Below, one piece after another: positions 9,420 to 59,213 of a DNA stretch of 64,000 bases. Both the position numbers and the translations under genes were made by a program. Below the pieces are notes generated by a model that made no database searches, was not told the origin of the DNA, and was given only the letters and a program-made list of their open reading frames with translations. Source of the stretch: Planctomyces sp. (GTDB taxonomy: Bacteria > Planctomycetota > Planctomycetia > Planctomycetales > Planctomycetaceae); NCBI GenBank assembly GCA_031375695.1, contig JANMIF010000512.1, positions 1,479 to 65,478 of the forward strand, given 5' to 3'. Within the stretch, counting starts at the first letter, position 1; every line of letters starts with the position of its first letter.

Positions 9420-12400
9420 CTAATTCCGAGTGATCGTCTCGTGAAGGTTCAAAATCGTGCGCGCGATGCTGGTCCAAGCTGCAAGTTCAATCTTGTCCAG
9501 ATCAGTCGGAGCTGGCTTTGCACCGACGGTCAACAGTTCGTTTGCGGCAGCGGCATCAGACTTGTATTCAGCGAGATGCGTTTGCAGCAGACGCTCAAGA
9601 ATGTCCGCTTCGGCTGGCTTGATGGATCGGGACAGCGCGCGGCGATAGGCGAACGCCAACCGTTCGCGAGGTGTTGATCCGCCGTGTCGCACGATCTGTT
9701 CGGCGAACGCTCGCGCGGCTTCGACGTAGCTGGGGTCGTTCAGCAAGACCAGTGATTGCAATGGCGTGTTCGAGCGTGCTCGGTCGGCCGTGCATTCCTC
9801 GCGGTTGGGAGCATCGAATGCGAGCAGACTGGGATGCAGGTATTGCCGTTGCCAATGCGTGTAAACACCGCGCCGATACAGGTTGTCGCCAGTGTCGTTT
9901 TGCCATTCACGCGCAGGGAAATTGAGGTACGCGAAATATCCTGGCGGCTGATACGGCTTGACGCTCGTGCCACCGAGTTTTGTCACCAGCAAACCGCTCA
10001 CTGCCAGCGCGTTGTCACGCACCAGTTCGGCATCAAATCGGAAGCGGCCTTGCCGCGCGAGCCAACGGTTGTACGGATCGACTTCGCGCAGAGCATTGCT
10101 GGCAGCGGACGATTGCTGATACGCGCCGCTCATCACGACCGACTTGATCAGCCGCTTCATGTCCCAGCCAGAATCGCGGAATTGTCCGGCGAGATGATCA
10201 AGCAACAGGGGATGACTCGGCCATTCGCCTTGTGCTCCGAGATCATCCAGCTTGCGCGACAAGCCGGCTCCGAAGAGTAGCTTCCAAATGCGATTCACAA
10301 ACACACGCGCGGTCAGCGGGTTGTCTTTCGACACGATCCACCTGGCGAGGTCGAGGCGTGTGAGGCGTTGTTCGGAGTCTAGGCCGATGCGTCCGACATC
10401 GGTACCGACGCGAGGTGCGTCGGTCAACACTGCCGGAAATGCTGGCGTCACAACATCGCCAGAATCGTCCATCCAATTGCCCCTTTTCAAAACGCGGACC
10501 ATTCGCGGTTGTACGGACGCCGTGATCAGCGTGCTGGGAATGCGTGTTTCAAAATCCTTGCGGCCTTTTTCGGCATCGACCAATTGTTTACGAGTCGCAT
10601 CGAGCGCCGAGGCGATTGATCGGAAATACGTCGCAAGTTCATTGCGATGCGCTTCGTTCCGTTGATCGGTGGCAATCGCCAACAGCACGGCGATGTTTGG
10701 CGGTAATCCCTGATCGGCTCGGATCGGGCGAGGCGATGTTGCGACTGATACTCGGAAGCGGCCGATTGTATGATTGGGGTTGTCGAGGTTTTGCAGCAGT
10801 TCAATCGTCAGCGAACCGCCGTCGGCCACGGTCAAATCCTGAACCGTTTCAAACACGGCGGCATGTGGCTGACCGACCTTTTCCATAACGGCCCAGCCCC
10901 ACGTTTTGCCCTTTTCGTCGCCGTCGATCGCGGCCGCGATTGCCCATTTGCGGTACGGGTTCGCCTCAGCGGCTCCGGTTTGTTCGTAAGTCGCGGTCGC
11001 GTTTTGCAACGGCACCAGTTGAGCTTCTGCGTCGGCTGGCTTGTGCGTCACGACGAATTCGGACAGCACGAAGTTGCCGTTTCCCGCTCGCCCCGGGCCT
11101 TTTGCCGGCAGCGAATCATCCGGCAAGACTTCGAGCCGGAAGGCTGTGATCCCACGCGGCACGTTTTTCACAACGAGCGAATAGGTGTCAGTCGCCGGAT
11201 TCGCGCCGCTGGCCACGATCGAACTGTCGTCCTTCGCGGTCAACGTCACGTTGTTCGCGGACGCAATCGACTCCGGCTTGAGCGTTGTCCACACAACTTG
11301 CGATTTTTCCCATTCAGCCTGCGCGACGAGCAGCTCCGGCGTTGAAGTCGCCAACGTTTTCTTGAGTCCTGCGATCTGCTGATCGAACTTCGAGAGTTCG
11401 GCCTCTTGCTCGACCGTCGAAACTTTGACGAACGGACCCCAATTCCCGTCAGCGTGAGCGCCGGAGTACAGCCCGCGCTCTTGAATGTCCGCGAAGAACG
11501 CCTCGAAGCGGTAAAAGTCGCGTGACGTGAAGGGATCAAACTTGTGGTCGTGGCATTCGGCACATCCAAGCGTCACCCCGAGCCACGTCCCCGTCGCGTT
11601 GCGGACTCGTTCGGCAATGTACTTCGCGAGGTATTCTTTGTCCTGCACGCCTCCCTCGGCCGACATCATGCCCAACCGGTTGTATCCCGACGCGATTTTT
11701 TGTTCACGAGTCGCGTCCGGAAGCAAGTCGCCGGCGAGCTGCTCAATCGTGAATTGATCGAACCGCTTATTCGCATTGAATGACTCAATCACGTACTGGC
11801 GGAACGGCGAGACGCTCATGTCCTGATCGCCGTGATACCCGACCGTGTCGGCATAGCGGACCAAATCGAGCCACCACATCGCTTGCCGTTCGCCGAAGTG
11901 CGGCGACTTCAGCAGCCGATCGACCACCTTTTCGTAAGCTGCCGACGAGTTGTCGCTGACAAACGCGTCGACTTCGTCTGGCGTCGGCGGCAACCCGATC
12001 AGATCGAAACTCAGCCGCCGAATTAATGTGATCCGATCCGCTTCGACCGACGGCTTGAGGTTCTGCGCCACGAGTCCTTCAAGAATGAAGGGATCAATCG
12101 TATTCTCGATTGCGGAATTGGGATTTGAGATTAGTGATTTGAGATTGGGCACTGTCGGTTGCTTGATAGGCAAGAACGCCCAGTGCCCTTCGTGCTTTGC
12201 TCCCTGTTCGATCCACTTCTTGATAATCGCGACATCGCGAACCGACAGCGACTTCGCACTGTCGGGTGGCGGCATTTTTTGTTCAGGATCGGACGAAATG
12301 ATGCGGCGGAACAATTCACTGTCGTTCGGCTTGCCTGGCACAACCGGCCGCCTGTCGCTGTCGCCCACCTTGCTTGCCAATCCCGCTTCCGTGTCGATCC

Positions 12401-12587
12401 GCAGGTCGGCTTGCCGCTTGTTCTTGTCCGGCCCGTGACAGAAGAAACAGTTGTCCGACAGAATCGGCCGAATGTCCCGATTGAATTCTACGATTTCCGG
12501 CAACGTCGCGTCGGCCGCCCGACACTCATGCACTGTGGCGAAAAGCGTGAACACAATTCCCAACAGTCGAAACGATTTGTGATTCAT
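9420..12587 (-). CDS. PSCyt1/PSCyt2(DUF1549)/PSD1(DUF1553) domain protein
   Basis: The internal ATG at 12587 gives the signal peptide MNHKSFRLLGIVFTLFATVHECRA. Contains CFFCHGPDKNKRQADLRID (planctomycete cytochrome c motif), LLKSPHFGERQAMWWLDLVRYADTVGYHGD (DUF1549) and CAECHDHKFDPFTSRDFYRFEAFF (DUF1553). Confidence 0.9.
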   Translation of the reverse strand: MNHKSFRLLGIVFTLFATVHECRAADATLPEIVEFNRDIRPILSDNCFFCHGPDKNKRQADLRIDTEAGLASKVGDSDRRPVVPGKPNDSELFRRIISSDPEQKMPPPDSAKSLSVRDVAIIKKWIEQGAKHEGHWAFLPIKQPTVPNLKSLISNPNSAIENTIDPFILEGLVAQNLKPSVEADRITLIRRLSFDLIGLPPTPDEVDAFVSDNSSAAYEKVVDRLLKSPHFGERQAMWWLDLVRYADTVGYHGDQDMSVSPFRQYVIESFNANKRFDQFTIEQLAGDLLPDATREQKIASGYNRLGMMSAEGGVQDKEYLAKYIAERVRNATGTWLGVTLGCAECHDHKFDPFTSRDFYRFEAFFADIQERGLYSGAHADGNWGPFVKVSTVEQEAELSKFDQQIAGLKKTLATSTPELLVAQAEWEKSQVVWTTLKPESIASANNVTLTAKDDSSIVASGANPATDTYSLVVKNVPRGITAFRLEVLPDDSLPAKGPGRAGNGNFVLSEFVVTHKPADAEAQLVPLQNATATYEQTGAAEANPYRKWAIAAAIDGDEKGKTWGWAVMEKVGQPHAAVFETVQDLTVADGGSLTIELLQNLDNPNHTIGRFRVSVATSPRPIRADQGLPPNIAVLLAIATDQRNEAHRNELATYFRSIASALDATRKQLVDAEKGRKDFETRIPSTLITASVQPRMVRVLKRGNWMDDSGDVVTPAFPAVLTDAPRVGTDVGRIGLDSEQRLTRLDLARWIVSKDNPLTARVFVNRIWKLLFGAGLSRKLDDLGAQGEWPSHPLLLDHLAGQFRDSGWDMKRLIKSVVMSGAYQQSSAASNALREVDPYNRWLARQGRFRFDAELVRDNALAVSGLLVTKLGGTSVKPYQPPGYFAYLNFPAREWQNDTGDNLYRRGVYTHWQRQYLHPSLLAFDAPNREECTADRARSNTPLQSLVLLNDPSYVEAARAFAEQIVRHGGSTPRERLAFAYRRALSRSIKPAEADILERLLQTHLAEYKSDAAAANELLTVGAKPAPTDLDKIELAAWTSIARTILNLHETITRN
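12119..12146. repeat. four tandem TGRGATT-like heptamers embedded in the 9420-12587 CDS
   Basis: tgggatt tgagatt agtgatt tgagatt. On the coding (minus) strand this reads aatctca aatcact aatctca aatccca and encodes NLKSLISNPN. Confidence 0.65.
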
Positions 12588-12611
12588 CGAGTGTTCCTTC
12601 TTCTTGTCTAT

Positions 12612-12696
12612 CATTCGTTGAGTTACTTCATTCGTTGGGGCGGCAACCGCGCTGAACACTCAATCGACTCCAACGAATGAAGTAACTCAACGAATG
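12612..12696. repeat. perfect 27-bp inverted repeat with a 31-nt loop in a divergent intergenic region
   Basis: cattcgttgagttacttcattcgttgg (12612-12638) and its exact reverse complement ccaacgaatgaagtaactcaacgaatg (12670-12696). Confidence 0.9.
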
Positions 12697-14292: not shown

Positions 14293-15204
14293 TCAGAATC
14301 TGTTGAGCCGAAATCCACCAAGTTGCCGTTTCGCATTGACGTTCGGCGGCTCCACGAGTTTGACCTTATTCGATTCTTTCTCGTCAGGCTCACCTGGCTC
14401 AGTCGGTTCAAGTGGCAATGCTTGAACCGCAGCCAACTCCGCTTGCAACCGTTTCAACTGTGACTCATCCAGAAAGTTTGCGAAGCGATCCTCTGGCAGC
14501 TTGACCAGTTGCGACAGCAAATACGCCAGTGCCGACGGATATTGCTGGCTAGGCTCAGAGACTTCCTCTGCGACCAGCTTTCGCAACGATTCGGCTTGAT
14601 CGTGGCTCAGTTTCAAGACTCCCGCAAGATAAAACGTCGTGCTGTCTCGCGACGTGCGCCATTGTTTGCTGACAAATGTCGCATGCTGAGCCGGTAGTAA
14701 AGTTCTTCGCAGAACTTTCGCAAACAACGACTCCTTCCCGTGCAAGCCGTCGCGAACGTGAAGGCTCAGTTCATTCTGTCGGATGGCGATCTCTTGAAAG
14801 ATTTGTTGATTGATGATGTTGTCGACGTTCTTATCCAGCAACTCACGCCGCAACTCCGCGATCGCATCGAGATGCCGCTTCATGTCACCTCGCCCCGCCA
14901 ACCGCAGCGCCGCTCGCTGCTGATCCGAAAGTTCCACTTGCCGTTCGAGGTATTCGATCTCCATTTGCAGATTCAATTCCAACCGATGCCGCAGCCTCTC
15001 GTCCGCTTGAAGCAGCCGCTGCTCCACGTTGACTCGCCTCAACACCGGCTGCCCGTCCTCGTCAAAGTCTTCGACTTCCAACGACACATCCACGGCCTGA
15101 GCTGACGCAGCACAGACCATCACAGCTACGCCAATCAACCAGTTCCACAAATGCGTCCGCAACACCCGATTTCCTTGTCTTTGACTGCTGCTCCTCGCGT
15201 TCAT
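14293..15204 (-). CDS. secreted helical paralog P1 of the 14.3-19.3 kb family (most divergent member)
   Basis: 303 aa with a signal-like N-terminus. Contains VELSDQQRAALRLAGRGDMKRHL and KLSHDQAESLRKLVAEEVSEP. Its ATG overlaps the stop of the upstream gene (ATGA at 15201-15204). Confidence 0.85.
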   Translation of the reverse strand: MNARSSSQRQGNRVLRTHLWNWLIGVAVMVCAASAQAVDVSLEVEDFDEDGQPVLRRVNVEQRLLQADERLRHRLELNLQMEIEYLERQVELSDQQRAALRLAGRGDMKRHLDAIAELRRELLDKNVDNIINQQIFQEIAIRQNELSLHVRDGLHGKESLFAKVLRRTLLPAQHATFVSKQWRTSRDSTTFYLAGVLKLSHDQAESLRKLVAEEVSEPSQQYPSALAYLLSQLVKLPEDRFANFLDESQLKRLQAELAAVQALPLEPTEPGEPDEKESNKVKLVEPPNVNAKRQLGGFRLNRF

Positions 15205-16055
15205 TCCTCGTCCTCCTGACGAATGCTTGAATCATCCGGCAACATGCCATAGGTCTTGAGTGTCGATTCGTATCGACCGGCGTTTTGCAATTGCAGCGAA
15301 AGGTTCTGCCACTGTTCTTCGTTGAATAGCGGCTTGATCTTTTCTTCTGGCAACTTCGCGAGATGATACAGCACATAGCCGTGGCAGTACGGGCTGATGG
15401 CTTTCGGTGGCGGGACTTGTTCTTTGATCAGCTTGCGAAACTCCACGTCTTGGTCTTTGCGAAATGTCACAACGCGGTTGATAGTGGCAATGACGGTGTC
15501 CAACTGAGTTTCAAACAGCTCGGTTCGCTGCCGAAGTAAGTGCTTGGCCAACCTCTGCCGCTGTTCGGCGTCAAGCACATTCTGCACAGTCTTGCGAAGC
15601 AACGACGTCTCGCCAAACAGCCCTTTTCGATACGCAACTTGCATTGGCCGAATGGTCTGACTGAGTTCAATGTACGTCGCCTGATCGACGAACCCATTCT
15701 TCGATCTGTCGTTGGCTTGGCGAATCAGCGCGTCGAATTCCTCGAAGAATCTCTTGATGTCGCCCCGCCCAATGAGATCGAACTTCCGTTTCTGATCGGT
15801 CGTCAACTGGCAGGCTGCATTCCAGCGGGCGATCTCGTCTTTTAGCTGCAATTCAAAACGAAATCGCACCGTGCCCTCCGATGTTTGGCTGCCGACAATC
15901 CATTGCTCCAGCGTTTGCTGATTGACCAAAAATCGCGTCACTTCGATTTCTGCTTCCACGAACTCCGCATCGACAACGTCTGCGCTGGCGAAGTTCGCCG
16001 ATACGAAACCAGCCAGCATCGAAGACACGACACAGTGCCGCCAGATCGCAGTCAT
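15201..16055 (-). CDS. secreted helical paralog P2
   Basis: 284 aa. Contains EQWIVGS, CQLTTDQKRKFDLIGRGDIKRFF, GLFGETSLLRKTV and TFRKDQDVEFRKLIKEQVPPP. ATGA overlap with the upstream gene at 16052-16055. Confidence 0.85.
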   Translation of the reverse strand: MTAIWRHCVVSSMLAGFVSANFASADVVDAEFVEAEIEVTRFLVNQQTLEQWIVGSQTSEGTVRFRFELQLKDEIARWNAACQLTTDQKRKFDLIGRGDIKRFFEEFDALIRQANDRSKNGFVDQATYIELSQTIRPMQVAYRKGLFGETSLLRKTVQNVLDAEQRQRLAKHLLRQRTELFETQLDTVIATINRVVTFRKDQDVEFRKLIKEQVPPPKAISPYCHGYVLYHLAKLPEEKIKPLFNEEQWQNLSLQLQNAGRYESTLKTYGMLPDDSSIRQEDEE

Positions 16056-17227
16056 TCGGATTTCTCCTGACTCTCGTCACCGGCATCCGGCAGCAGCCCA
16101 TATTGTCGCAAATACTCTTCGTATCGAGCTGCGTTCCCTTTGATTTGGCCGAACTTGGTGATTTGGGTTTCGTCCAGCACGTTGCTCAGTTTTTCGTTCG
16201 GCATCCGCGACAGGTGATAGTAAACCCACATCGTTAGGTACTGATTGACTCGCACCGGCGGAGGGACTTCCGATCGAATCAACTTCTTCAAGCCCTCCTT
16301 TTGCTCATCTCGCAGCATGAGGAATTGCTTCAAGCTCGCCAGGCTGGCCTCTAATTGCGTTTCAAATTGCTGCCCGCGTTCCCGGATTTGCTCCGCGGCA
16401 TACTCGGCCGCGAACTTCGGCGGGATCGATTTCGGAACGGTTTTGCTCAACAGCGATTGATCGTCGAACAAGCCGCCCCCGGCGGCCATTCGCTGCCGCA
16501 AAGCCATCGCCGTTTGCTGAAGCCGAACGTACTCTTCTTGTTCAAGAAGTTGCAGCGACACGTCCGGCCCCAATTGATCATGTAACGCTTCCGCCAAACT
16601 AACGAAACGCTTGATGTCGCCACGACCGGCCAATTGCAGCTTGCGTCGTTGCGCCGCATCGAGCTGATACTTGGTTTGCAGCGCATCCAACTTCAAAGTC
16701 AACTGCGCCTCCCATTCCCGCTGAACTGCCTCCAGCGCTTTGTTCGATCCGAAAATCAACTGATCCAGATGCTGATGCGTGATCGAGAATCGCCGCACTT
16801 CAATGAGAACCTCATTGCCGTCGTCATCGACCTGCACCACCGGTGCGGCTTGTTGAATCATGACACCCGCCCGAGCGACTCCTGCCCGAACGACTACGGC
16901 TGCCGGCGCTGGTGCGGCCGCCGGTCGCTCGTTCGCCGGAACGAGCTTTTTCAATGCGGCCACGATTTGCACGCGATCTTTCACATTCCGTTCGCCCAGG
17001 GCGGCTTCGAGCTTCTTGGCGAAAGCGGTTCGCTCCCGTTTGTCCTCCGCCGGATGGCAGTACGCGCACGTCACCGCCTGGACCGCCGATGGAAACGCCT
17101 CTTCAAAAGCCACTTTGTATTGAGGCCGTGCGAAACTCGTCGCGGCGGGCAACAACAACATCAACACGATCGAACCACCGACCGCGCGAATGCCCCGACC
17201 CCTCATCGTTTCCATCAATATCCTCAT
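16052..17227 (-). CDS. secreted paralog P3 with N-terminal CxxCH (c-type heme-binding-like) module
   Basis: 391 aa. Contains RPQYKVAFEEAFPSAVQAVTCAYCH (CAYCH at 17054-17068), an Ala/Pro linker, then LDQLIFGSNK, YQLDAAQRRKLQLAGRGDIKRFV and GLFDDQSLLSKTV. ATGA overlap at 17224-17227. Confidence 0.85.
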   Translation of the reverse strand: MRILMETMRGRGIRAVGGSIVLMLLLPAATSFARPQYKVAFEEAFPSAVQAVTCAYCHPAEDKRERTAFAKKLEAALGERNVKDRVQIVAALKKLVPANERPAAAPAPAAVVVRAGVARAGVMIQQAAPVVQVDDDGNEVLIEVRRFSITHQHLDQLIFGSNKALEAVQREWEAQLTLKLDALQTKYQLDAAQRRKLQLAGRGDIKRFVSLAEALHDQLGPDVSLQLLEQEEYVRLQQTAMALRQRMAAGGGLFDDQSLLSKTVPKSIPPKFAAEYAAEQIRERGQQFETQLEASLASLKQFLMLRDEQKEGLKKLIRSEVPPPVRVNQYLTMWVYYHLSRMPNEKLSNVLDETQITKFGQIKGNAARYEEYLRQYGLLPDAGDESQEKSE

Positions 17228-18396
17228 GGCGAAGCTTCCTGACCGTCCTCGTCCACTTCGCCAGGCCAGAGGCCGGAGTTGCGGAGGTGCTGCTCGTATG
17301 CTGCCGCGTTCGCTCTGATCTGGCCGAGTTTCCCGAGTTGGGTTTCGTCGAGCACTTGCTTCAGCCTGTCGTCTGGCATTCGCGAAAGCTGGTACATCAC
17401 ATAGACGTAAGCTTGCTGATTCAATTGCCGCAACGGCGCGATGTCGGATCGAATCAATGCTTTCAACTTGTCCTTTTGGTCTTCTCGCAGCGTCAGGAAT
17501 TGAGTCAGGTTTTGAACGCTCTGAGTCACATAGGTTTCGTACTGCTGATCGCGCTGGAGTTTCTGATCGGCTAGGTACTTCTCGGCGAACTTCGGGCTGA
17601 TCGCTTTTGGAATCGTCTTGTTCAACAGCGATTGCTCGCCGAACAAGCCAATGGTCACACCGTCGCTCAACCTGTTGGCCATCAAAAAGCGATTTCGCAA
17701 ACCGATCGCTCGTTGCTGGATCTGGACGTACTCTTGTTGGTCGAGCGTGATCAATGTCGAGGCGGCGGCTTCCCCTAATTCCGCGTGCAGTGCATCCGCC
17801 TCACCGAGAAATCGCTTGATGTCCCCACGACCGGCCAACTGCAACTTGCGTCGCTGAGTCGCGTCGAGTTCATACTGCTTGGTCACTGTTTCGACGGCCA
17901 TTTTCAATTGCGATTCAAATTCCGTGCGAGCCTGCTCGACGGTTTTATTCGATCCGAAAATCCATTGATCCAGATTTTGATGCGTGATCGAAAATCGCTG
18001 CACTTGGACGTTGATCGCGTTGCCATCGTCATCGAGTTCGACCGCTTGTTCGACGACGAAAGCCGGGGCAAGTCTGCGCATAACAACTGCAGCGCGCGCC
18101 TGAACCACCGGCGCCGCCACTGGTCGGGCTTTGGGAGGACCGATCTTCTTCAAGGCCGCAACGACTTGCGCCTGATCTCGCACCATCTTCGCTCCCAAGG
18201 CGACTTCGAGTTGTTTGGCGTACTCATTGCGTTGCCGCTGGTCGTCTCCTTCGTGACAGGCGGCACACGTCACCTCGCCAAAATCCTGAAAGGCTTGTTC
18301 AAAGCCCAGTTTGTAATTCGGCCGTGCGACGACCGTATCAGCTTGCATCACCACCCACAGCACAATCAGACTGACGAGCAAGGCGCATCGCGGCAT
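17224..18396 (-). CDS. secreted paralog P4 with N-terminal CxxCH module
   Basis: 390 aa. Contains RPNYKLGFEQAFQDFGEVTCAACH (CAACH at 18253-18267), an Ala/Pro linker, then LDQWIFGSNK, YELDATQRRKLQLAGRGDIKRFL and GLFGEQSLLNKTI. Confidence 0.85.
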   Translation of the reverse strand: MPRCALLVSLIVLWVVMQADTVVARPNYKLGFEQAFQDFGEVTCAACHEGDDQRQRNEYAKQLEVALGAKMVRDQAQVVAALKKIGPPKARPVAAPVVQARAAVVMRRLAPAFVVEQAVELDDDGNAINVQVQRFSITHQNLDQWIFGSNKTVEQARTEFESQLKMAVETVTKQYELDATQRRKLQLAGRGDIKRFLGEADALHAELGEAAASTLITLDQQEYVQIQQRAIGLRNRFLMANRLSDGVTIGLFGEQSLLNKTIPKAISPKFAEKYLADQKLQRDQQYETYVTQSVQNLTQFLTLREDQKDKLKALIRSDIAPLRQLNQQAYVYVMYQLSRMPDDRLKQVLDETQLGKLGQIRANAAAYEQHLRNSGLWPGEVDEDGQEASP

Positions 18397-18399
18397 GAT

Positions 18400-19260
18400 T
18401 CACTCCGCTCCATCGGGCATCAAACCATTCTGTTTCAGAAATTCTTCCATGCCTCGGCCCTGAGCCAGATTCGCCTTGACGATTTTCCATTGAGCGGCGT
18501 CGAACAACGGTTTGAGTTTGTCTTCGGGGATCTTCGAGGCTTGCAGCATCACGACGTAATACTCGTATTGCCCGGCCGAGCGGTGAGGCGGTTTCGTTTC
18601 CTCGCGGAGCAGCTTCAGCACCTTTTCCCGTTGCTCGTGCCGTAGCGGCATTTGAGCTTCCAGCATGGCGACCATCAGTTCCAATTTGGCGTGATACCGC
18701 GCCAGCCTGCGATCAGCTACGGCCGTGTCGTAGTTCGCCGTCTGTACGGCATCGAGCGTGTTACGAATCGTCTTCAGCAAGAACGATTGATCGTTGAACA
18801 AGCCGGCATTCAGAGTCATTTGCAACGGTTGAATCTCTTGCCAAATCTCGTTCATCTTCTGCTGGTCTTTGCGAACGATTAGGAATTTCTGACGAGTGAC
18901 TTCGTAATGTTCCCAAAACCGTTTGATGTCTCCTCGCCCCGCCAGTAGGAGTTTGTTCTTTTGAGAATCATTGAGCTGACACTCCCGATCAACCGCATCC
19001 ATTTGCAACTTGAGCTGCGTTTCCAACTTCTGCCGCCCCGTGCTGGCATTCCGTCCGCCGAAAATCCACTGCTCGAAGTTCTCTTCCGAAAACTCCCCCT
19101 GTACCGGCTGCAGCTGCTCGCCATTCGGTTCGTCGTCATCACCTGCAACTGCCGCGTCCAGGAGTTGAATCGCGAAATCATCTGCGACCACAACGCCGCT
19201 CCAGCAAACTGCCGCCGCGATCAAAATCAACAAAAACAACCGACGAATTCGATCTCGCAT
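18400..19260 (-). CDS. secreted helical paralog P5
   Basis: 286 aa. Contains FEQWIFGGRN, CQLNDSQKNKLLLAGRGDIKRFW, GLFNDQSFLLKTI and PLRHEQREKVLKLLREETKPP. Confidence 0.85.
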   Translation of the reverse strand: MRDRIRRLFLLILIAAAVCWSGVVVADDFAIQLLDAAVAGDDDEPNGEQLQPVQGEFSEENFEQWIFGGRNASTGRQKLETQLKLQMDAVDRECQLNDSQKNKLLLAGRGDIKRFWEHYEVTRQKFLIVRKDQQKMNEIWQEIQPLQMTLNAGLFNDQSFLLKTIRNTLDAVQTANYDTAVADRRLARYHAKLELMVAMLEAQMPLRHEQREKVLKLLREETKPPHRSAGQYEYYVVMLQASKIPEDKLKPLFDAAQWKIVKANLAQGRGMEEFLKQNGLMPDGAE

Positions 19261-19283
19261 TTGTTACCAACCTCGGTCAATTC

Positions 19284-20192
19284 TCAATTCCCAACCGCGT
19301 CATCTTCGACCAACACTCCGAACCCACCCCAGCCGCCCCAACCCCAGAATTGGTTTTGGCCGGTGTTGCTGTCTCGCCAAGCCTGCTTTTGAGTCTCATT
19401 CAGAAATGGCACGACCATTTCATCCGCCGGTCGCGGCACGTTCTCGTCACCGTGCATGAACATCTCCAGCGATTGATCCCAGCCGCTCTTCCAATTTGTC
19501 TTCAGCGACTCGCTGATCTTTTCCCGCTGATCCTTCGACAACACCATATCTTTGTCGATCTTGGCCACGAGGTTCAGCAGCGCAACTCGTTTGCGAGCTT
19601 CGCCCCGCTTGACCATCTCCGCCTCATAAGTCGCGAGCTTCTCGGCAGGAAACATCGCCTTGAGCGTTTCCGTGAACGTCTCTTGAATCGGCTTGCGTGG
19701 ATCGGGGTAAATCGAACTCCCGTCGGTTGGCACCTGCCAGCCCCCTTGCTGCATCTTGCGTTGCACATCGGCCAATTTCTTGACGGCGATTTTAAGTCCT
19801 TTTTCACCGACCTTCTTGAGTTCCTTTTGCTGCTCCTTCGTCGGTTCAAATACCCGCTGAATCAACGAGAGTTCCGCCTTGACCAGCGGCTTCAATTGCG
19901 GAGCAAACTGCTGCTCAAGCTGATCGCCCCCCGCAGGCAAGTCGCCATCACCAAGAATGAGCTGCGCTGGCACTGCGGCACCGCCGCCGCCGAACAGATT
20001 CAGCACTCCTTCAATCAACGCGCTGACACCTTCTTTGACAAGCTCCTGCTCCGCCGTCGCCGCCTCAACTGCTTTCTGAGCCGCCTCAACAACCGCCTCG
20101 GCGGCAGCGGCTGCCGGTTTCGGCTTGTCTTCAGCCAAGCCGAAAGTGACGCTCGTCAATAACAGCGACAGGCCCAGACCAACAGCTTTCAT
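19284..20192 (-). CDS. secreted Ala/Lys/Gln-rich helical protein, possibly a distant relative of P1-P5
   Basis: The internal ATG at 20192 (GAAGGGGA Shine-Dalgarno upstream) gives MKAVGLGLSLLLTSVTFGLAEDK. Contains PTKEQQKELKKV, LSKDQREKISESL and FLNETQKQAW. C-terminus is WGWGGWGGFG. Confidence 0.8.
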   Translation of the reverse strand: MKAVGLGLSLLLTSVTFGLAEDKPKPAAAAAEAVVEAAQKAVEAATAEQELVKEGVSALIEGVLNLFGGGGAAVPAQLILGDGDLPAGGDQLEQQFAPQLKPLVKAELSLIQRVFEPTKEQQKELKKVGEKGLKIAVKKLADVQRKMQQGGWQVPTDGSSIYPDPRKPIQETFTETLKAMFPAEKLATYEAEMVKRGEARKRVALLNLVAKIDKDMVLSKDQREKISESLKTNWKSGWDQSLEMFMHGDENVPRPADEMVVPFLNETQKQAWRDSNTGQNQFWGWGGWGGFGVLVEDDAVGN

Positions 20193-20214
20193 CACGATTC
20201 CCCTTCGATCACAT

Positions 20215-20511
20215 TCACTCGCGTTGTTGAACCGCATCAACTTGGCGGTTGAACGACGACTGAAACTCATAAGCTTTCGGAAGCTTCACAGCGAGTGCCA
20301 CCACGAGCACAGCCGCGACGCCGCCAGTTAGCGCGCACCAAAACTGCGTCGTCGTCTTCACGTCGGCGCGTGAGTACGAAACCATCGCCACCACGAACGC
20401 ACCGAAGCCGAACACCATTCCGATCAGGCTGTTCGTAAACACCTGCCCGTCCAAAATCAGCGGAAACGCAACGGCGATCAGCAGCAAGACACCAGCGATC
20501 GACAACCGCAT
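20215..20511 (-). CDS. small integral membrane protein (3 TM)
   Basis: 98 aa: MRLSIAGVLLLIAVAFPLIL...GMVFGFGAFVVAMVSY...ALTGGVAAVLVVALAV. Confidence 0.7.
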   Translation of the reverse strand: MRLSIAGVLLLIAVAFPLILDGQVFTNSLIGMVFGFGAFVVAMVSYSRADVKTTTQFWCALTGGVAAVLVVALAVKLPKAYEFQSSFNRQVDAVQQRE

Positions 20512-20536
20512 GATGCACCTCGTGATTCAACTTCTA

Positions 20537-20636
20537 CGTAGCTCAGTCGCTCCGCGACTGAGGTTTTCGACGGCTCGACGCTGGTAGTCGCACAGAGCCG
20601 CTCGGAATGCGAGTCGCGGAGCAACTCGCCTACGCA
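20537..20636 (+). repeat. GTAGC-anchored double-hairpin REP-like element inside the operon
   Basis: gtagc, then ctcagtcgc tcc gcgactgag (20542-20562), gttttcgac..., then gcgagt cgcggagca actcgc (20609-20629), flanked by tacgta...ctacgca. The first 30 nt closely match the 5625-5655 copy. Confidence 0.7.
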
Positions 20637-20637
20637 T

Positions 20638-23600
20638 TTACTTTTCCGATTTCTTCTCCAGCCGATTGAAGTATTCATCCAAGCCAGATCGGAATTCTTC
20701 CGGAAGTTTTGGGCCGGAGTCGCCGGTGCTTTGTGATACGTCGCGTTCCTCGCGAGATTCTTTTTCGTTCGTGCCGCTGCCGATCAACGCCAGGGCCGAG
20801 TCGTTTGTGTTGCCGCCGCCTCCGCCACCGGGATTGGCACCTCCGCCTCCGCCACCTTTCGGGTTGAAGCGTTTCGACTGCAGCAGTAACTCGATCGCTT
20901 CCGTTTCGGCGGCAATTGCAGGCGAACCGGTTTCCGCGCGGCCGAGGATCAGCATCGCGTCGTGCATCACTTCCGAGACTTTGTTCAGGAGCGCGATCTC
21001 TTTCGCGAATTCCTGTTCGCCGTCCGGCAAGGTGGCGATCCGGTCAACCACTTTTTCGACTCGTTCGCCCAGGATGCGTTGCGTTTCGGCCTGTCGGTCG
21101 GATTCCGTTTTATGTTCGTCCGATTTGACCGCCGGCTTGGCTTGCTCGGCGACTCGTGTTTCTTCTCGCAGATTGATTTCACCTTCCAGGATTTGCAGGA
21201 CTTCTAGAACGACCGAGGGGGGCAAACTTCCCTTCGACTTGCAGCCCGGACACTGACCTTTGCAACCGGCATCCACCAAGTCTTCGGCCCAACGGTCGAG
21301 CGTGTCGGACCAGAATTCGGCTTGAGCCATCGAAAGCCCGTTTTCCTTTTTCAGATCGTCGCCAAGTTGCCGCAGTCCGCCGATGACGTCTTGTTTGCGC
21401 ATGTCGTCGAGCACGACCTTGAACGGGGCCATGCGGCGGCGTTCAAAATAACCCGCGATGTCGTCCATGATGTTCGAGACGTCGAGGCTGCCCTTTCCTT
21501 CTTCTTTCGACAGTTCGATGAAGAGTTTCGTCGCCGTCTCTTTTGTTGCGACCGCCGCCACGCCGAACGCATCGGTCAGTTGATCGCCGAGCCGCCCGGC
21601 CACTTTGTTCTGCGTGCGAGATGCCGCCTTCAATCGTTTGACCAACGTGCTCCCTTCAAGATTCGCCAGCACGCGATTCAACTCGTCGGCAATCTTGTCA
21701 AACTCCGCCAGCAAATCTTGTTGCTGCTTGACCGCCTCTTCGACCTTTTCCGATGCCGGGGGTTTCGGTTGATCGCCACTGCTCGCCTTGCCGGCCAACA
21801 TCGTTGACGGCAGTCGTAAGCTCGGTGAGCTGTTGTTCTTCTTCGGTTCGGACGGCTTCGCATTCGGGTCTTGCGGTTGCTGAGTCGATTCCACATCGGT
21901 GATCGACGGCACGCTGTTCGGTTTCTTGGGTTCGTCTTCGCCTTCCTTCTTTTCTTCCTTGCCGCCGGAGCTTTTCGTTGTCGCGCGGTTCTGTCCCGCT
22001 TGTCGCGGCGGCTCGCTCGGCTTCGCCGATGACGGCTGACCCGATTGAGGTTTGCCGTCGTTTGGATTTGGCTTGCTTGGATTCCCTTGATTCATCGCCA
22101 ACTGCGGAGCTTGAGCACCTTGCTTCAACAGGTCGGCGACCGACGGCATCCGGTTGCCGGAGATGTCTTTTAGGATTTGCAGCATCTCGGCCCACTTCTC
22201 CAAATGGCCGACGCCGAACTCCGGATTGCGACTCGCTTGCTTCACCAAATCTTCGCCAGAGAGGACGAGATTGCTGAGCCGCCGCCCGTTCGCTCGTTCG
22301 TCGACCGCTTGCTTGTCCAACCGCTTGCGATTGTCGGCTTGATCGAGTTCCGCCGGCTCAAGGTCACGCAATTGCTTGTTGGTTTCGTGAAGAGCCATCT
22401 CGCGATCGCGGACTTCGAGCGACTGCCGATGCCACTTGCTCAACTGCTCGGTCATCCAGATCGCGTGTTGTTCGGGGTTGAGCACATAAAACGTGTAGAC
22501 CCCCGAATATGCTCGCTCGCGGCCGGGGAAGAAATCTTCCGCGAAGAGCCGGACCTGAATCGGCTGCGGTTCGATGCCGAGGACTTTCGCTGAGAACGTA
22601 CCGGTCAGGTCGAGCGTTTCTTTGTCGTTGCCACCGGCCGAGAGGATGCGTTCCCCTTTCGCGGGGTCTTTGAAGTTCGTCTTGTCGATACCGTTCCACT
22701 CGATGCCGACGTGCTTCACGCCGAAATCGTCGGTCGCTCGGACTTTGAACGTGAGCTGCTCGGAATCCAACACGACTTTTTGCCGAGGCAATTCTTCGCA
22801 GGCAATTGACGGTATTTCGTCTTCGCGAGCATTGATCGACACGACAAACGGCTCGCGTCCGGCGAGGCCATGCTTGTCGATCCATTGGAACTCCAACTTC
22901 CGATTTTCATCAACCGCGACGACCGGGCTAACGACCTTTGCACCGCTTGGCGATGTTGCCGCGCCGTCCACTTTCGCCCCGGTCAGTTCGCGAGTCGCCG
23001 TGACCGCGACCGTCGCACGACTCCCTTTGACCAGCGACAACGATCCGCCTCGGACATCTTTGTGAACCGGCTTCGTTCGTTCGAGGTATTTCGGGAGTTC
23101 GATATTCGCCTCGATGCCGGACAACTCCGGTCGCAGCGTCGGCTGAATCGTGACATCGCGCCGGAAGTCGCCGATTCGCACGCGTGTCCGAGCCGCGTCA
23201 ATCTGCGGCGGGATTTCAAATTCGTACTGACCGGCATTTAACCGCGCGGTCACCGGCTGCTGCATCCCGACTTGAATCTCCCCGGCTTCTGGTCGCCACG
23301 CAGTGCCGCTGGCCAGCTTGACCGGCTGCGTAAACACTTCGCCATGCGGCACGACGATCGTGTCGGGCAATGCGTCGATTGCGGCAAACGTGTATCGCGG
23401 CGTGTCGCCCCACGGCTTCAAGAATCGCGCCCAAGCATTTGTCGCCGCCGCTGGCACAACCGCCAGCAATGCGATCGCCGCTAGTCCCGCACAACAAGCC
23501 AGCACCGCGCGACCGCGATGCTTCGGAGCCGGCACTGAATCGGAGAAGTCACGCTTCGCCGCAGTCTCGGCCACTTGCCCAACCGCCGCTTGGCACAACG

Positions 23601-23976
23601 CCAACGATCGAGCTTGTTCACTTTCGTTGTGAACCAATTCGATGATTCCGAGCAACTGATCGCCGACGCTCGGATGCTTTCGGCTCAACAATCGAGCCAA
23701 CTGTTCCAGCCGTCGATGTCGCCAAACCCAGCGATGCAGCGCCAGCGGGATCAACGCACAACCGGCAATCGCCGCGATGAAGATGCCGAGTCGCACGCTT
23801 GCCGGCGTGTCAAGGATGCGGTCGAGAGCGAACGTCGCCAGGAATCCAACGAAAACTCCGAACACCGCTCCACAGGCGGCCTCGATCAATTTGATCGTCC
23901 ACACCCGTTTGCGAAACGCCAGCAACTGAGCCTGTAACGTTTCCGGCAACTGCAATTGAGCCTGCGACAAACTCAT
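20638..23976 (-). CDS. large membrane-anchored protein, DUF4175-like (family call tentative)
   Basis: 1112 aa. AAGGAG Shine-Dalgarno. Two N-terminal TM helices, a beta-rich middle, coiled-coil, a K/P/S/Q low-complexity stretch, a poly-Gly tract (GGGGGANPGGGGGG) and the C-terminal EEFRSGLDEYFNRLE. Confidence 0.85.
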   Translation of the reverse strand: MSLSQAQLQLPETLQAQLLAFRKRVWTIKLIEAACGAVFGVFVGFLATFALDRILDTPASVRLGIFIAAIAGCALIPLALHRWVWRHRRLEQLARLLSRKHPSVGDQLLGIIELVHNESEQARSLALCQAAVGQVAETAAKRDFSDSVPAPKHRGRAVLACCAGLAAIALLAVVPAAATNAWARFLKPWGDTPRYTFAAIDALPDTIVVPHGEVFTQPVKLASGTAWRPEAGEIQVGMQQPVTARLNAGQYEFEIPPQIDAARTRVRIGDFRRDVTIQPTLRPELSGIEANIELPKYLERTKPVHKDVRGGSLSLVKGSRATVAVTATRELTGAKVDGAATSPSGAKVVSPVVAVDENRKLEFQWIDKHGLAGREPFVVSINAREDEIPSIACEELPRQKVVLDSEQLTFKVRATDDFGVKHVGIEWNGIDKTNFKDPAKGERILSAGGNDKETLDLTGTFSAKVLGIEPQPIQVRLFAEDFFPGRERAYSGVYTFYVLNPEQHAIWMTEQLSKWHRQSLEVRDREMALHETNKQLRDLEPAELDQADNRKRLDKQAVDERANGRRLSNLVLSGEDLVKQASRNPEFGVGHLEKWAEMLQILKDISGNRMPSVADLLKQGAQAPQLAMNQGNPSKPNPNDGKPQSGQPSSAKPSEPPRQAGQNRATTKSSGGKEEKKEGEDEPKKPNSVPSITDVESTQQPQDPNAKPSEPKKNNSSPSLRLPSTMLAGKASSGDQPKPPASEKVEEAVKQQQDLLAEFDKIADELNRVLANLEGSTLVKRLKAASRTQNKVAGRLGDQLTDAFGVAAVATKETATKLFIELSKEEGKGSLDVSNIMDDIAGYFERRRMAPFKVVLDDMRKQDVIGGLRQLGDDLKKENGLSMAQAEFWSDTLDRWAEDLVDAGCKGQCPGCKSKGSLPPSVVLEVLQILEGEINLREETRVAEQAKPAVKSDEHKTESDRQAETQRILGERVEKVVDRIATLPDGEQEFAKEIALLNKVSEVMHDAMLILGRAETGSPAIAAETEAIELLLQSKRFNPKGGGGGGANPGGGGGGNTNDSALALIGSGTNEKESREERDVSQSTGDSGPKLPEEFRSGLDEYFNRLEKKSEK

Positions 23977-24238
23977 GGTTCACTCCTTCGGTTTCCGGTG
24001 AGCGAGAGCGTTCGTGATTTCAGGAATCGCGGATCGGCCGAGAATCGTAACCGGCCAATCGTCGTTCGTCGCGATCAAAACAGGTCCGATTTGTTCAGAA
24101 TTGACACGCTCGACAAAAGTTTGCGAACGGGGCTGTCAGGCCTCTGTTACTGTTCTTCGATCGAAAAACCAGGGAACTGACGCCTCCCGTTCGCCGACTT
24201 TTATCGGGCACATCAACATTGTCGGACGCAACCCGCCG

Positions 24239-24269
24239 AAAAAAAACGCCCGACTCGAAGAGTCGGGCG
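24239..24269 (-). terminator. rho-independent terminator of the giant RTX gene
   Basis: cgcccgactc(24247-24256) gaa gagtcgggcg(24260-24269). On the minus strand the stem is followed by a run of 8 T (A8 at 24239-24246). Confidence 0.8.
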
Positions 24270-24348: not shown

Positions 24349-27300
24349 TTAAATCTCGTCCAATGCTTCCGCCAATTGGACTGGCCCCGTCACGCGGCCG
24401 GACACATTATCACGTTTGGTTGGCACCGTCCGAGCGAAGAACCAATCCCGGCCGGACAACCCCTTGAGAGCGTCGTGGCTCGGCGAGTCGTCGTGGACAG
24501 TGGCGGCCGTCAGGAAGGACGTTCCGTTCAGACCACCCCCCGTGGTGCCACGCAAGTGATCGATTCGCACTTCATAGGATCCCCCAACACTGGTCCACTC
24601 GGCAAGGATATTCATCAGTGCCATGATGTCCGCATCGAAGTCCTGTGTACCGGTGATCGGATCGAAGTCGGTATTGCCGGCGATCAGAATGTCGTCCTCC
24701 GAACCGCCGGTGAGCATGTCGCTTCCGGTGCCGCCAATAAGCAAGCTGCCACCCGATCCGCCGGTCAGTTTGTCGTTCCCGTCGCCACCCACTTGGATGT
24801 CATTGCCACTGCCGCTGCCGAGCGTGTCGTTGCCCGTTTCGCCGAACATCTTGTCGTTACCACTGCCGCCGTTGATGGCGTCGTTGCCGTCGCCGCCAAA
24901 GGCTTGGTCGTCTCCGGAGCCAGCATCCAAACCGTCGTTGCCGGCGTCCCCATGAAGGGTGTCATTGCCGCCACCGCTCGTGAGCTTGTCGTTCCCCGCT
25001 CCACCATCCAGGGAATCGTTGCCGTTGCCGCCGATCAGGATGTCGTTGCCAGCACCACCAGAAAACTTGACGTTGACGCTCGTGCCGGATGCGTCCAGTT
25101 TGTCATTGCCGCCATTGCCGTTGACGACCACTTCTCCGGTGAAGCAGCCGTTCAAGGAACTCTCGAGGATGACCCGGTCCGCCTGCGATCCCCCTTCGAG
25201 GTAGATCCGCTCGAACAGATTGTTCGTCCCCATGGCCAGACCGGAGAAGATCACGGTCGAACCTAATTTGATCACCAGATTGCCATTCACGTCGCACGAG
25301 ACACGGACGGTGTTCGACGCGTTGGGGAGCGTGAGGCATGGCCCCAGGGTCTCGATCGACACAAAGTTGACCTGCTGATGAATTCCCGGAGTGTTGTAAT
25401 TGCCCGTGCCGGCGGCGTTCGTCAGCGTGGTCGTCGCGGCCAACGGACTCACAAGTAGTGCGTCGCCGGGAATCGAGCCAGTGGCAGGGAGTCCGCCATC
25501 GACGGTAATCGCGTCTCCGGCAACACTGGTTGGGGCTGGTGTGACAAAGAATTTGTCGTTGTCCGCCTCGCCGTTGAAGTTGTAGATTCCCGCGACTGTG
25601 TTAGCTGGGCTTAGTCCCGGCCCGTTCACGTTGATGGTATCGGTCCCGGCACCAGAGTTGACGGTCAAACTCGCGATCGCGTCACTCGTCCCAGCCACGT
25701 TGATCAGGTTCACGCCGGCCCCCGAATTGAGCACCAGGATGTTCACGTTGGCGTTGTAGGTGATGCTGGTTCCAGCTCCCGCCCCATCACGGTCGATCGT
25801 CGTGGCGTTAATCGTGTAGTCGTTGGCCGTGGTGTCCCCCTGGTCGTTGATGTTCAGCGTATCGTTGGTGTTGGCTGCAGCGTTGTCATTGAAGACCACC
25901 GCGCCGAGGACCGTATCCAGCGAATTGGCCGCGCTGCCGATGCTGACGATGTCCTGCAACGCACCGCCGGTAATCGTTGTCGTGGCGGCGACCGGCGTGC
26001 CAAGCACATTGTACGTGTTGACTCCCAGGCCCCCCTTCACCTCGACAACGTTGACGTTGGCGTTATAGGTGATGAGTGCTGCCGCCGGGGTGAGGGAGCG
26101 TAAGATCGTCCCGTTGCCCGCGGACACGTCAAGCACATAGGTGTTGGGACCGGCGTCACCCTGGTCATTGATGTTCAACGTATCGGTGGCGTTGGCTCCG
26201 GCGGCGTCATTGAACGTCACCGCGCCGAGGATTGCATCCAGAGAATTGGTGCCGAAGCTGCCGATGCTGACGATGTCCTGAGCCGCACCGCCGTTGATCG
26301 TCGTCGCGGCACTGACAGGCGTCGCCCGCACGTCGTAGATGTTGGCCCCCGTGCCGCCGTTCACCGCGACAAAGTTGACGAATTGATTGTAGGCGATGAA
26401 CGCCGCGCCCGCGCGTGAGATTATCATGTAGGGAAACGACCCCAAGCTGGCCACATAGGTGTTAGCCGAGGCGTCCCCTTGATCGAGGATGTTCAGCGCA
26501 TCGGTCGCATCTCCGACGACGTCGTTGTAGATCACTGCGCCGAGGATCGCATCCAGTGAATTGGACGTGGCACCGATGTTGACGATGTCCTGAGCCGTGT
26601 TTCCGGTGATCGTCGTGGTTGCGGTGGCCGGCGTGGCGACCACATTGTAGGTGTTGACTCCGAGGCCCCCCTTCACATCGACAAGATCGACCTTGTCGTT
26701 GTAGGTGATGAGCGCCGCCAAAGGGGTCGCGGTGCGGGAGATCGTCCCGTTGCTGCCGGACACGTTGAGCACATAGGTGTTGGGACCGGCGTCACCTTGG
26801 TCGAGAATGTTCAGCACGTCGGTAAAGACTCCGGCGGCGTCATTGAAAACCACCGCACCGAGGATCGTATCCAGCGAATTCCCCGCGCTGCCGATGTTGA
26901 CGGTGTCCAGCAAGATGTTGCCGGTGATCGTCGTCGTGACACCGGTTGGCGTCGCGAGCAACCCGAAGGTGTTGGCTCCCGTGCCGCCGTTCACCGCGAT
27001 GTTCGGGGTGGTGAACGACGCATCCACCGCCTGTTGGAAATAGCTCTCGCCGTCGTTGCCGAGATTGATCGTCAGCGAGGTGGTGGGCGTCACGAAGTCG
27101 GTCTGCTCAAACGTGTTCGCCAGACTCCGCAGCCGCGAGATGTTGGCGACATTGGGCGTATCGTTCTCCAACTGGGCCATGTCGTTGCCATTGCCACTGA
27201 GCAAGTTGAAGACGACCGTCGCAGGAGTTCCGGCGTTCACCAGAACCGGGCTGAGATTTGAGTAGGCATAGTTCGCCGTCGCGCCACCGACCAGAGCGAT

Positions 27301-28575: not shown

Positions 28576-28884
28576 GGGTGCGGTCCTTTGTTCAGCGATG
28601 TGGAACTTGGAAGTGAGCCAACTGATGGCGATCAGGTCGGGTTTTTTCACGCCGCAGAACCGCTCGCAGAATGGTTCAGCCGCGTGAAAAAAACGCCCGT
28701 CCCCCTTCCACCTTGATGGGAGTGGGAGCCAATCTAAGAACCTCATGGATAATGTCAACCAAGGCAGGATGCGTAGGCTGCGCAAAAGGAATGGTTGTCA
28801 AGAATGCAATTGTCGATCGGACGTCTTGGCGAAAAACGCCGCTTGACCGACTTTGTTTTTCACGACTACATTCCGCCCGCACTT

Positions 28885-34916: not shown

Positions 34917-35162
34917 TCCGTGCGATTTCTTTGCGCTGGCGAGTGGGGCCGCGTTAGCCACGGTGGTGCGGAATTGTCGAATTCTCAGCCCAGTCGGGGG
35001 GCTGATGCCGCGCCGCTCGCGAAGTCGTTCATGCAAACATCGACGCGCGAAATTTCTGACTGGCCGCTGGATGCGCGGCGGTTGGCTCGATTACAACTGT
35101 GGACCGTTTTCGGTGTGATTTCACCGTGCTTTTCGGTTCCGTGTTTTCGTCAGGAGTCTGTC

Positions 35163-37692: not shown

Positions 37693-37720
37693 GGGTCGGC
37701 CGGGAAAGGCCGACCTACAG
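37693..37720. terminator. GC hairpin between convergent genes; on the minus strand it reads CTGTAGG + hairpin
   Basis: ggtcggcc(37694-37701) gggaaa ggccgacc(37708-37715). The TAG stop of the 37715-40699 gene (cta at 37715-37717) lies inside the GTAG motif. Confidence 0.6.
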
Positions 37721-40699: not shown

Positions 40700-40876
40700 G
40701 AAAACCGACTGGTTCACGATCTTTCCTTTCGTGGAGTGCCAATCGAGCATCGTGGATTCTGTGCAAAAAACCAACCTTCCGTGCTTTGCAAGATCTCAGG
40801 ACGCGGTTACATTCCCGCACCTCAAAACCTGGGGATTTGGAAAATCGTTGACGGAATTTGATCTAAGGGATATCTC

Positions 40877-52310: not shown

Positions 52311-52354
52311 ATCGACTCCGTGGCAGGCGCACTCGTTCCAGTCAGGCCCTGCGG

Positions 52355-55137: not shown

Positions 55138-55174
55138 CCCGGATCGTTCTTTAGTTAGTTCAAGGAGACTCGAC

Positions 55175-56416: not shown

Positions 56417-56441
56417 TATTAGTGGGGCTGATGGAACATTT

Positions 56442-56542
56442 GGGACTGATGGGGCGATGAATTTCCAAAGCCCCACCAGTCTCATTCGTCACAGTCCTCC
56501 AAATCTCATAAGTCCCATTCGTCCCCTAAGCCTCATAAGTCC
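56442..56542 (+). repeat. imperfect palindrome plus direct 11-mers in the cpaB-tadG spacer
   Basis: gggactgatggggc(56442-56455) / gccccaccagtctc(56470-56483), with 2 mismatches. ctcataagtcc occurs twice (56505-56515 and 56532-56542). cattcgtc occurs twice. Confidence 0.7.
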
Positions 56543-59210: not shown

Positions 59211-59213
59211 GGT

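Follow-up and report, generated by a model that had tools for sequence, protein, structure and literature searches.

An eight-gene planctomycete locus is the giant, A and B block of a conserved MoxR–DUF58–BatA-type gene cluster

Few bacterial gene clusters that still lack a mechanism are as widespread as operons of the MoxR–DUF58–BatA type. Among the known systems closest to the locus described here, which occupies positions 14293–23976 on the minus strand of a 64,000-nt stretch of Planctomyces sp. DNA (the window; all coordinates are window positions), is the Bat operon, arranged MoxR–DUF58–BatA–BatB–BatC–BatD–BatE in Bacteroides and with homologues in spirochaetes and Francisella. A second comparison is offered by the operon RL3499–RL3502 of the alphaproteobacterium Rhizobium leguminosarum, for which Vanderlinde et al. 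2011 and the TIGR02302 description are said to give the four-gene architecture MoxR–DUF58–DUF4159/TIGR02226–DUF4175/TIGR02302. For the Bat proteins, a complex in the periplasm has been proposed, with the task of reducing damaged proteins or of exporting reducing power (PMC3557215). Both membrane integrity and cell shape depend on RL3499, the rhizobial MoxR protein (PMC3893208). The planctomycete locus consists of eight genes, which encode one giant membrane-anchored protein (the giant), one small transmembrane protein and six secreted helical proteins of two types, A and B. A search of the literature on DUF4175/MoxR/BatA-type families and planctomycetes found no description of the cluster to which it belongs.

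The genomic surroundings of the giant were compared in 80 loci, an unbiased set found through the giant and read by BLAST at the level of open reading frames (ORFs); the denominators given are the loci with enough flank. A near-fixed order was observed: MoxR (AAA_3), DUF58, a BatA-domain protein of ~665 aa, a 734-aa protein, the giant, A, B, a 364-aa protein and a ~980-aa protein. The 734-aa gene stands upstream of the giant in 61 of 65 loci, and MoxR, DUF58, the BatA-domain gene and the 734-aa gene are found there together in 50 of 52. Downstream, A or B is present in 58/59 loci, the 364-aa gene in 43/43 and the ~980-aa gene in 40/43. A orthologues follow the giant in most loci, and the copy number is 1–2 for A and 1–6 for B. 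The planctomycete version of the MoxR/BatA arrangement is a fixed unit of 9–10 genes. Domains of the partners were assigned by Pfam and NCBIfam. The BatA-domain protein carries the PF07584/TIGR02226 double-transmembrane domain (PF07584, E = 1e-17), the 734-aa protein gives weak Ig-like and GATase1-like matches, the 364-aa protein has a squalene-hopene-cyclase-type (terpene-cyclase-like) repeat, and the ~980-aa protein has a C-terminal ResA/TlpA/DsbE-like thiol:disulfide oxidoreductase domain (E = 1e-32).

The window holds the giant, A and B block of this larger cluster, with B expanded to five copies and a small gene with three transmembrane helices gained. No MoxR, DUF58, BatA-domain, 734-aa, 364-aa or thioredoxin-fold gene lies within its 64 kb, and the closest relative of the giant (71–73% identity) still has the 734-aa gene upstream; the locus is therefore a middle block that became detached recently. 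In a few other lineages, too, the cluster is split or the giant stands by itself. The slot held in relatives by the 734-aa BatA-like gene is occupied here by a neighbour on the same strand (24349–28785) encoding 1478 aa with a DUF4394 domain (E = 2e-64) and RTX calcium-binding repeats. One giant homologue with 65% identity has neither a BatA-like gene upstream nor A or B downstream, so the giant can be encoded apart from all of its partners. The original prediction, made from the letters of the window, had taken the locus for an undescribed extracytoplasmic assembly in its own right. The co-directional, extracytoplasmic multi-protein set was recovered, as was a conserved gene order around the giant, but not the autonomy: in relatives the set is the distal half of a MoxR–DUF58–BatA…TlpA/ResA-like cluster. 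This cluster is real, phylum-wide and uncharacterised, and is not a free-standing new system. As the split in the window demonstrates, the genes of the periplasmic arm need not sit beside those of the ATPase arm, a point that helps in choosing genes for joint deletion.

Comparison with the Bat operon showed both shared and missing elements. In relatives the locus lies directly 3' of MoxR (AAA_3), DUF58 and a protein with the BatA N-terminal double-transmembrane domain (PF07584/TIGR02226), and both systems are predicted to form membrane and periplasmic multi-protein complexes. The periplasmic reducing function proposed for Bat (PMC3557215) has its parallel in the TlpA-like reductase and the conserved thiols of the planctomycete cluster. 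In contrast to Bat, the planctomycete BatA-domain protein yielded no VWA domain, VWA_2 being recorded on the DUF58 protein only. No TPR (BatC/E) or BatD match was obtained with Pfam in the window products, in the scanned Singulisphaera cluster proteins or in the Pfam lists of the related loci, while the giant, A/B, the 364-aa protein and the ~980-aa oxidoreductase are without counterpart in described Bat operons. The MoxR, DUF58 and BatA genes, which precede the giant in 50/52 related loci, are themselves absent from the window.

The likeness to RL3499–RL3502 lies in the succession of a MoxR ATPase, a DUF58 protein, a double-transmembrane BatA-domain protein and a long membrane-anchored protein with a Gly-rich low-complexity extracytoplasmic C-terminal region. 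TIGR02302 proteins are defined by 2–3 N-terminal transmembrane helices followed by a long extracytoplasmic region of Gly/Gln-rich low complexity. The giant has this architecture, with three transmembrane helices, a disordered stretch at residues 631–738 and poly-Gly at 1040–1056. Its orthologues stand distal to the MoxR–DUF58–double-transmembrane genes in 50/52 related loci; within the 64-kb window none of these genes occurs. The planctomycete cluster differs in having an extra 734-aa protein plus A, B, the 364-aa protein and the oxidoreductase. Moreover, the DUF4175 (PF13779) and TIGR02302 hidden Markov models (HMMs) match no planctomycete giant tested, that is, neither the window giant (E ≤ 1) nor the Singulisphaera giant nor any of 14 aligned giants (E ≤ 5). 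The earlier description of the giant as DUF4175-like, made on architecture, is accordingly not upheld by the models; a single giant homologue bears the UniRef name 'DUF4175 family protein'. Since neither the features of Bat (VWA BatA/B, TPR, BatD) nor matches to the DUF4175/TIGR02302 HMMs were found, the closest named systems are analogues and not families to which the locus belongs. The locus does belong to the known, poorly understood MoxR/Bat-like class of envelope systems.

The giant (1112 aa; 20638–23976, minus strand) was analysed through its ORF, hydropathy and an AlphaFold2 (AF2) model. Hydropathy and AF2 both give three hydrophobic helices, at residues ~31–54, ~59–86 and ~153–175, where two had been predicted. 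A strongly basic segment between helices 2 and 3 places residues ~88–150 in the cytoplasm and ~930 residues in the periplasm. The model has a mean predicted local distance difference test score (pLDDT) of 76 and shows a helical domain at ~90–147 on the cytoplasmic side. In the periplasm it is predicted to form three immunoglobulin (Ig)-like beta-sandwiches (~200–500), long helices (501–630), a disordered low-complexity linker (631–738), a helical bundle (740–1032), a poly-Gly tail (1040–1056) and a terminal helix; the helical, low-complexity and poly-Gly regions read earlier from the letters are all present. A Cys loop, CKGQCPGC (905–912), sits in the helical bundle with low pLDDT and, as modelled, is probably exposed. 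C909 is invariant in 76 of 76 sequences, and the giant in the window keeps every family-invariant residue.

More than 1500 homologues of the giant, with ~60% identity over the full length, were found across Planctomycetota, in Isosphaeraceae, Singulisphaera, Schlesneria, Planctomicrobium, Gemmataceae, Planctomycetaceae, Pirellulaceae and others, and a scan with a giant pattern matched 477 species genomes. The giant is among the most conserved large proteins in the phylum. It has no match in Pfam or NCBIfam, none among plasmids by tblastn and none among PDB sequences in a profile search with the giant alignment. Pfam scans of 14 giants and of 122 B-family members gave no more than scattered weak matches, DUF4175 not among them. 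Foldseek retrieved generic Ig/macroglobulin-domain arrays only, from which no function follows.

The A protein (302 aa; 19284–20192, minus strand) is the first conserved partner 3' of the giant. Its length is counted from the ATG that gives a clean signal peptide, MKAVGLGLSLLLTSVTFGLA; the maximal ORF is 328 aa. It is followed on the same strand by five B paralogs: B286 (286 aa; 18400–19260), B390 (390 aa; 17224–18396), B391 (391 aa; 16052–17227), B284 (284 aa; 15201–16055) and B303 (303 aa; 14293–15204), the last gene of the unit. The tandem paralogy proposed for these five is confirmed: they are 27–32% identical in the alignment, share an invariant GRGDxKR motif and match one another by BLAST with E-values as low as 1e-122. 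An N-terminal hydrophobic, signal-like (Sec-type) segment is present on all A/B products and, as had been noted, every product 3' of the giant starts in this way. The 302-aa protein had been listed as secreted and of a separate kind. It is secreted, but it is a distant member of the same superfamily, with an hmmsearch E of 2.7e-5 and an hhalign probability of 98.9% (E = 3e-17) between A-orthologue and B-family alignments; from these two comparisons the window holds six members of one superfamily. By hhalign, A/B showed no relationship to the giant, the 734-aa protein, the 364-aa protein or the oxidoreductase.

B286 is the canonical orthologue, with 50–60% identity to B proteins of other species, the conserved Cys and GRGDIKRF; this exact motif occurs in 77 of the best 120 B homologues. 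B390 and B391 are 50% identical, and the next-closest relative of each is the window paralog B284, which indicates that at least this pair arose in the present lineage. B284 and B303 are divergent, the best match of each being B proteins of other species; B303, with GRGDMKRH, has diverged most of the five. Five B copies are near the top of the range in related loci. Canonical A and B copies are conserved at 40–60% identity with many near-invariant buried-type residues. One conserved Cys is found in 113 of 122 B-family members, 88 of the 122 having exactly one Cys past residue 30, and 93% of the A family have a Cys at the equivalent place. In the window this Cys is kept by B286 and B284 and lost in A302, B390, B391 and B303; A302 has F141 in its stead.

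An AF2 model of B390, built from 122 aligned sequences, gave a core at ~113–380 with pLDDT mostly above 90, in which a beta-hairpin precedes a helical bundle. Three helices of the B core start with a repeated L-x-x-x-Q-x-x-K-L. A weak internal repeat signal was also seen when B was aligned to B by hhalign (columns 92–119 against 202–229, E = 0.0025), and the helix starts suggest that the B domain stems from a duplicated helical unit. At least 224 B-family homologues exist, a lower bound from scoring the best 8000 candidates. Every one of them is unnamed or hypothetical and without a Pfam domain; those few with a taxon name come from Planctomycetota. Foldseek of the B390 core found no match in PDB (best E 1.1, TM-score <0.2) or BFVD. 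Pfam, NCBIfam, PADLOC and PHROGs returned nothing significant for any of the eight products, nor did a profile search of PDB sequences with the paralog alignment. That the five paralogs could not be placed in a characterised family is borne out by these searches.

B390 and B391 additionally carry a module of ~85 aa directly after the signal peptide (18082–18336 and 16874–17140, minus strand; residues ~21–105 of B390), ahead of the B core. It contains a CxxCH motif, CAACH in B390 (18253–18267) and CAYCH in B391 (17054–17068). The statement that no product has a recognisable signature agrees with the profile and structure searches as far as characterised families go, but it overlooked this motif. 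An exhaustive HMMER search found the module in 147 representative clusters. Most members are stand-alone secreted proteins of 90–150 aa with the motif ARPxYKxxF…CxxCH…RNxYGKAL…KNVKD, and in some the module sits N-terminal to a domain that, on reading the partner sequences, looks esterase-like, DUF1080-like, redoxin-like or caspase-like. Fusion to a B core is seen in this lineage only, and no small CxxCH gene was found in 84 related loci.

The Cys and His residues of CxxCH are invariant in 33 of 33 homologues. No Pfam family matches the module at threshold, two cytochrome families each matching 1/33 members with E ~0.006. Profile matches in PDB are weak (E 0.005–0.015) and confined to the haem-binding CxxCH segments of reaction-centre cytochromes, and the module alignment has no conserved Met or second His as a distal haem ligand. 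The module thus shares with c-type cytochromes a CxxCH in a secreted protein and matches no known cytochrome c family or structure. Judged by sequence, it is probably an undescribed mono-haem or metal-binding module. For the giant, the A/B superfamily and the CxxCH module alike, no Pfam model, no solved relative and no paper was found.

A third comparison was made with TlpA/ResA/CcmG oxidoreductases and their Cys-containing clients (Sco, CoxB and apocytochrome c). The ~980-aa partner supplies the ResA/TlpA/DsbE-like domain, and candidate clients are the secreted proteins with a conserved, putatively exposed Cys or a CxxCH. The C-x3-C-P of the giant loop has the spacing of the Sco motif, a likeness of motif and not of fold. 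Unlike in the TlpA systems, the oxidoreductase is not in the window, the candidate clients are unrelated to Sco, CoxB or known cytochromes, and most family members have one Cys and not a pair. Taken with the TlpA-like partner, the lone conserved cysteines suggest a scaffold in the periplasm that carries out thiol or haem chemistry. They also provide, with a dedicated TlpA-like reductase, a concrete and testable handle on the function of the system.

With a probability of about 0.45, the locus is the extracytoplasmic arm of a Planctomycetota-wide MoxR/DUF58/BatA-type envelope system, here detached, that uses thiol or haem chemistry in envelope maintenance or redox protection. From the synteny, topology, fold predictions and conservation we infer the following arrangement. 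The giant would be anchored in the inner membrane by its three helices, and its ~930 periplasmic residues, with their Ig-like domains, long helical bundles and flexible linkers, would form a scaffold on which the six secreted A/B proteins would dock as subunits. A MoxR/DUF58 pair encoded elsewhere in the genome would act in trans, assembling or remodelling the complex from the cytoplasm through the conserved cytoplasmic domain of the giant. The working sites may be the single, putatively exposed cysteines in the giant, A and B, acting either as inter-subunit disulfides or as a thiol/metal relay, and the TlpA-like reductase of the cluster would hold them in the right redox state. In two of the B copies of this lineage, a haem-type CxxCH module would have taken the place of the Cys. 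Such a system would be expected to serve in maintaining the envelope or in redox protection of the periplasm, the role put forward for Bat operons.

Several observations weigh against this arrangement. The partner genes missing from the 64 kb have to be assumed elsewhere in the genome, and some genomes have a lone giant with no A or B gene beside it (L088, L016). Four of the six A/B proteins in the window, A itself and three B paralogs, are without the conserved Cys, and the CxxCH module has neither a conserved distal haem ligand nor a cytochrome Pfam family. In addition, bat mutants of Leptospira were without an oxidative-stress phenotype (PMC3557215).

It is quite plausible as an alternative, if on balance improbable, that the complex is a purely structural envelope scaffold for shape and integrity, its cysteines forming static inter-subunit disulfides with no redox or electron transfer. 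The giant resembles structural envelope proteins in combining Ig-like domains with long helical bundles and disordered linkers, and the A/B core is an all-helical bundle without a catalytic signature. The operon RL3499–RL3502 affects morphology and membrane integrity (PMC3893208), and the envelope/division regulator CenR of Rhodobacter has a MoxR protein and a TIGR02302 protein among its targets (PMC9275681). The giant, however, matches neither TIGR02302 nor DUF4175, the cluster includes a conserved TlpA/ResA-like reductase (40/43 loci), and two paralogs have acquired CxxCH modules. TlpA/ResA-type reductases usually keep thiols reduced rather than form structural disulfides.

A more far-reaching form of the thiol/haem reading is that the giant, A/B and the TlpA-like protein are an undescribed, Planctomycetota-specific trans-periplasmic machine, assembled by MoxR/DUF58 and relaying thiols or electrons through Cys and, in this lineage, also haem. 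Such a machine would be a core determinant of the unusual envelope of planctomycetes and not an accessory stress system, because the giant is ~60% identical across four orders. We regard this as doubtful.

It is less likely that A and B work on their own as secreted or surface proteins, for instance as adhesins or parts of a coat, and have no more than a transcript in common with the giant, the five-gene array reflecting diversification of an exposed protein. Sec signal peptides on all A/B products would fit, as would a copy number of 1–6 between lineages, the divergence of the extra copies in the window and an RGD inside the invariant motif. Diversifying surface proteins would not be expected to show the 40–60% identity and near-invariant buried-type residues of canonical A/B, and the fixed giant–A–B order across four orders argues for a functional link. 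The RGD would presumably have no integrin target in free-living planctomycetes.

Quite unlikely is a role of A/B as periplasmic stress chaperones of the CpxP/Spy/ZraP (LTXXQ) type, buffering unfolded envelope proteins. Like these chaperones, A and B are small, secreted and all-helical with repeated L-x-x-x-Q helix starts (L-x-x-x-Q-x-x-K-L here), and Pfam gave faint LTXXQ (PF07813) matches in 4 of 122 family members (best E 0.011). These matches are far under the Pfam threshold and cover 3% of members, and the PF07813 HMM matches 0/5 of the window paralogs. Nor did Foldseek find a relative in PDB, which includes Spy, CpxP and ZraP. The A/B core, at ~270 residues and with a beta-hairpin first, is also much larger than the Spy cradle.

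It is very improbable that we are dealing with a non-functional, decaying remnant severed from its MoxR half and its oxidoreductase. The absence of partners from the 64 kb would fit, as would the loss of family-conserved residues, the Cys among them, in several of the window copies, but the eight ORFs are intact with ribosome-binding sites and normal periodicity of GC content at third codon positions (GC3), the giant retains all family-invariant residues, the ratio of nonsynonymous to synonymous differences (pN/pS) of the small transmembrane gene is 0.16, and the modules are separated in other lineages too, so that linkage is not required.

The genes of the unit all lie on the minus strand at the positions first assigned to them. 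They number eight; nine had been announced, against a list of eight. Tight packing was likewise confirmed, with gaps in the 5'-to-3' direction of 126, 22, 23, 3, −4, −4 and −4 nt when the 302-aa start is set at 20192. All eight exact products are called as genes in an NCBI contig record of 67,050 nt, every one unnamed, and a GGAG-like ribosome-binding site precedes most of the starts. The unit is bounded on its 5' side by a strong intrinsic terminator of the upstream DUF4394/RTX gene (24247–24269, minus strand), a 10-bp GC-rich stem followed by T8. On its 3' side a convergent gene, whose frame has coding GC3 periodicity, ends at 14190.

Between the terminator and the giant lies a leader or promoter region of 270 nt (23977–24246, minus strand). 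It contains a 31-nt imperfect inverted repeat, the arms of a long hairpin (24101–24131 and 24186–24216). The predicted RNA fold is −105.6 kcal/mol (z = −4.16), and none of 200 shuffles was as stable. The inverted repeat has no further copy in the window and no Rfam family; the leader could be a regulatory 5' untranslated region or a scar of the rearrangement that split the cluster. A scan for sigma-70 promoters found no site and is uninformative for planctomycetes. The 126-nt intercistronic spacer after the giant (20512–20637, minus strand) had been called structured, and it does fold into a stem-loop with a 15-bp core (−56 kcal/mol, z = −3.1). The stem is not followed by a U-tract and does not take in the ribosome-binding site of the next gene. 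The spacer has no Rfam match and no repeat in the window, and its sequence is not kept in the one close relative that has the next gene. Rfam scanning of the whole locus gave sub-threshold matches only, all on the upstream terminator.

The small gene after the spacer (98 aa; 20215–20511, minus strand) has three hydrophobic segments, predicted as transmembrane helices, and a GAGGTG ribosome-binding site. Among 5.8 billion proteins it has a single homologue, with 88% identity, and the pN/pS against this homologue (0.16) indicates purifying selection. No homologue was found in 84 related loci, where the giant and A have no such gene between them. The gene is a lineage-specific orphan, yet a real gene. 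In the close relative that has it (L086, ~432–605), an insert of ~170 nt parts it from the A-type gene (compare 20193–20214 in the window). The insert holds a perfect-looking palindrome, AAATTTCATTTTTGGT…ACCAAAAATGAAATTT, and may be an element like a miniature inverted-repeat transposable element.

Other features were observed in the window. A plus-strand gene at 30260–31468 encodes pentapeptide repeats with a TIR domain (TIR_2, E = 3.7e-9); bacterial TIR domains are often linked to NAD+-consuming defence. A Tad/Flp-type pilus-like cluster at 55001–61638 (plus strand) comprises an RcpC/CpaB-domain protein, a 420-aa protein without a Pfam match, a T2SSE ATPase and two T2SSF platform proteins, and a second T2SSE-like ATPase is encoded at 34920–36332. 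Two giant proteins with DUF7133 and HEAT repeats, one with a cytochrome c domain and the other with an SMP-30/gluconolactonase domain, are encoded at 37715–40774 (minus strand) and 46772–50800 (plus strand). They adjoin two DUF1501 genes (45283–46731 and 50886–52565), and a PSCyt1/PSCyt2/PSD1 protein is encoded at 9420–12659. DUF7133, DUF1501 and PSCyt1/PSCyt2/PSD1 proteins are typical planctomycete families.

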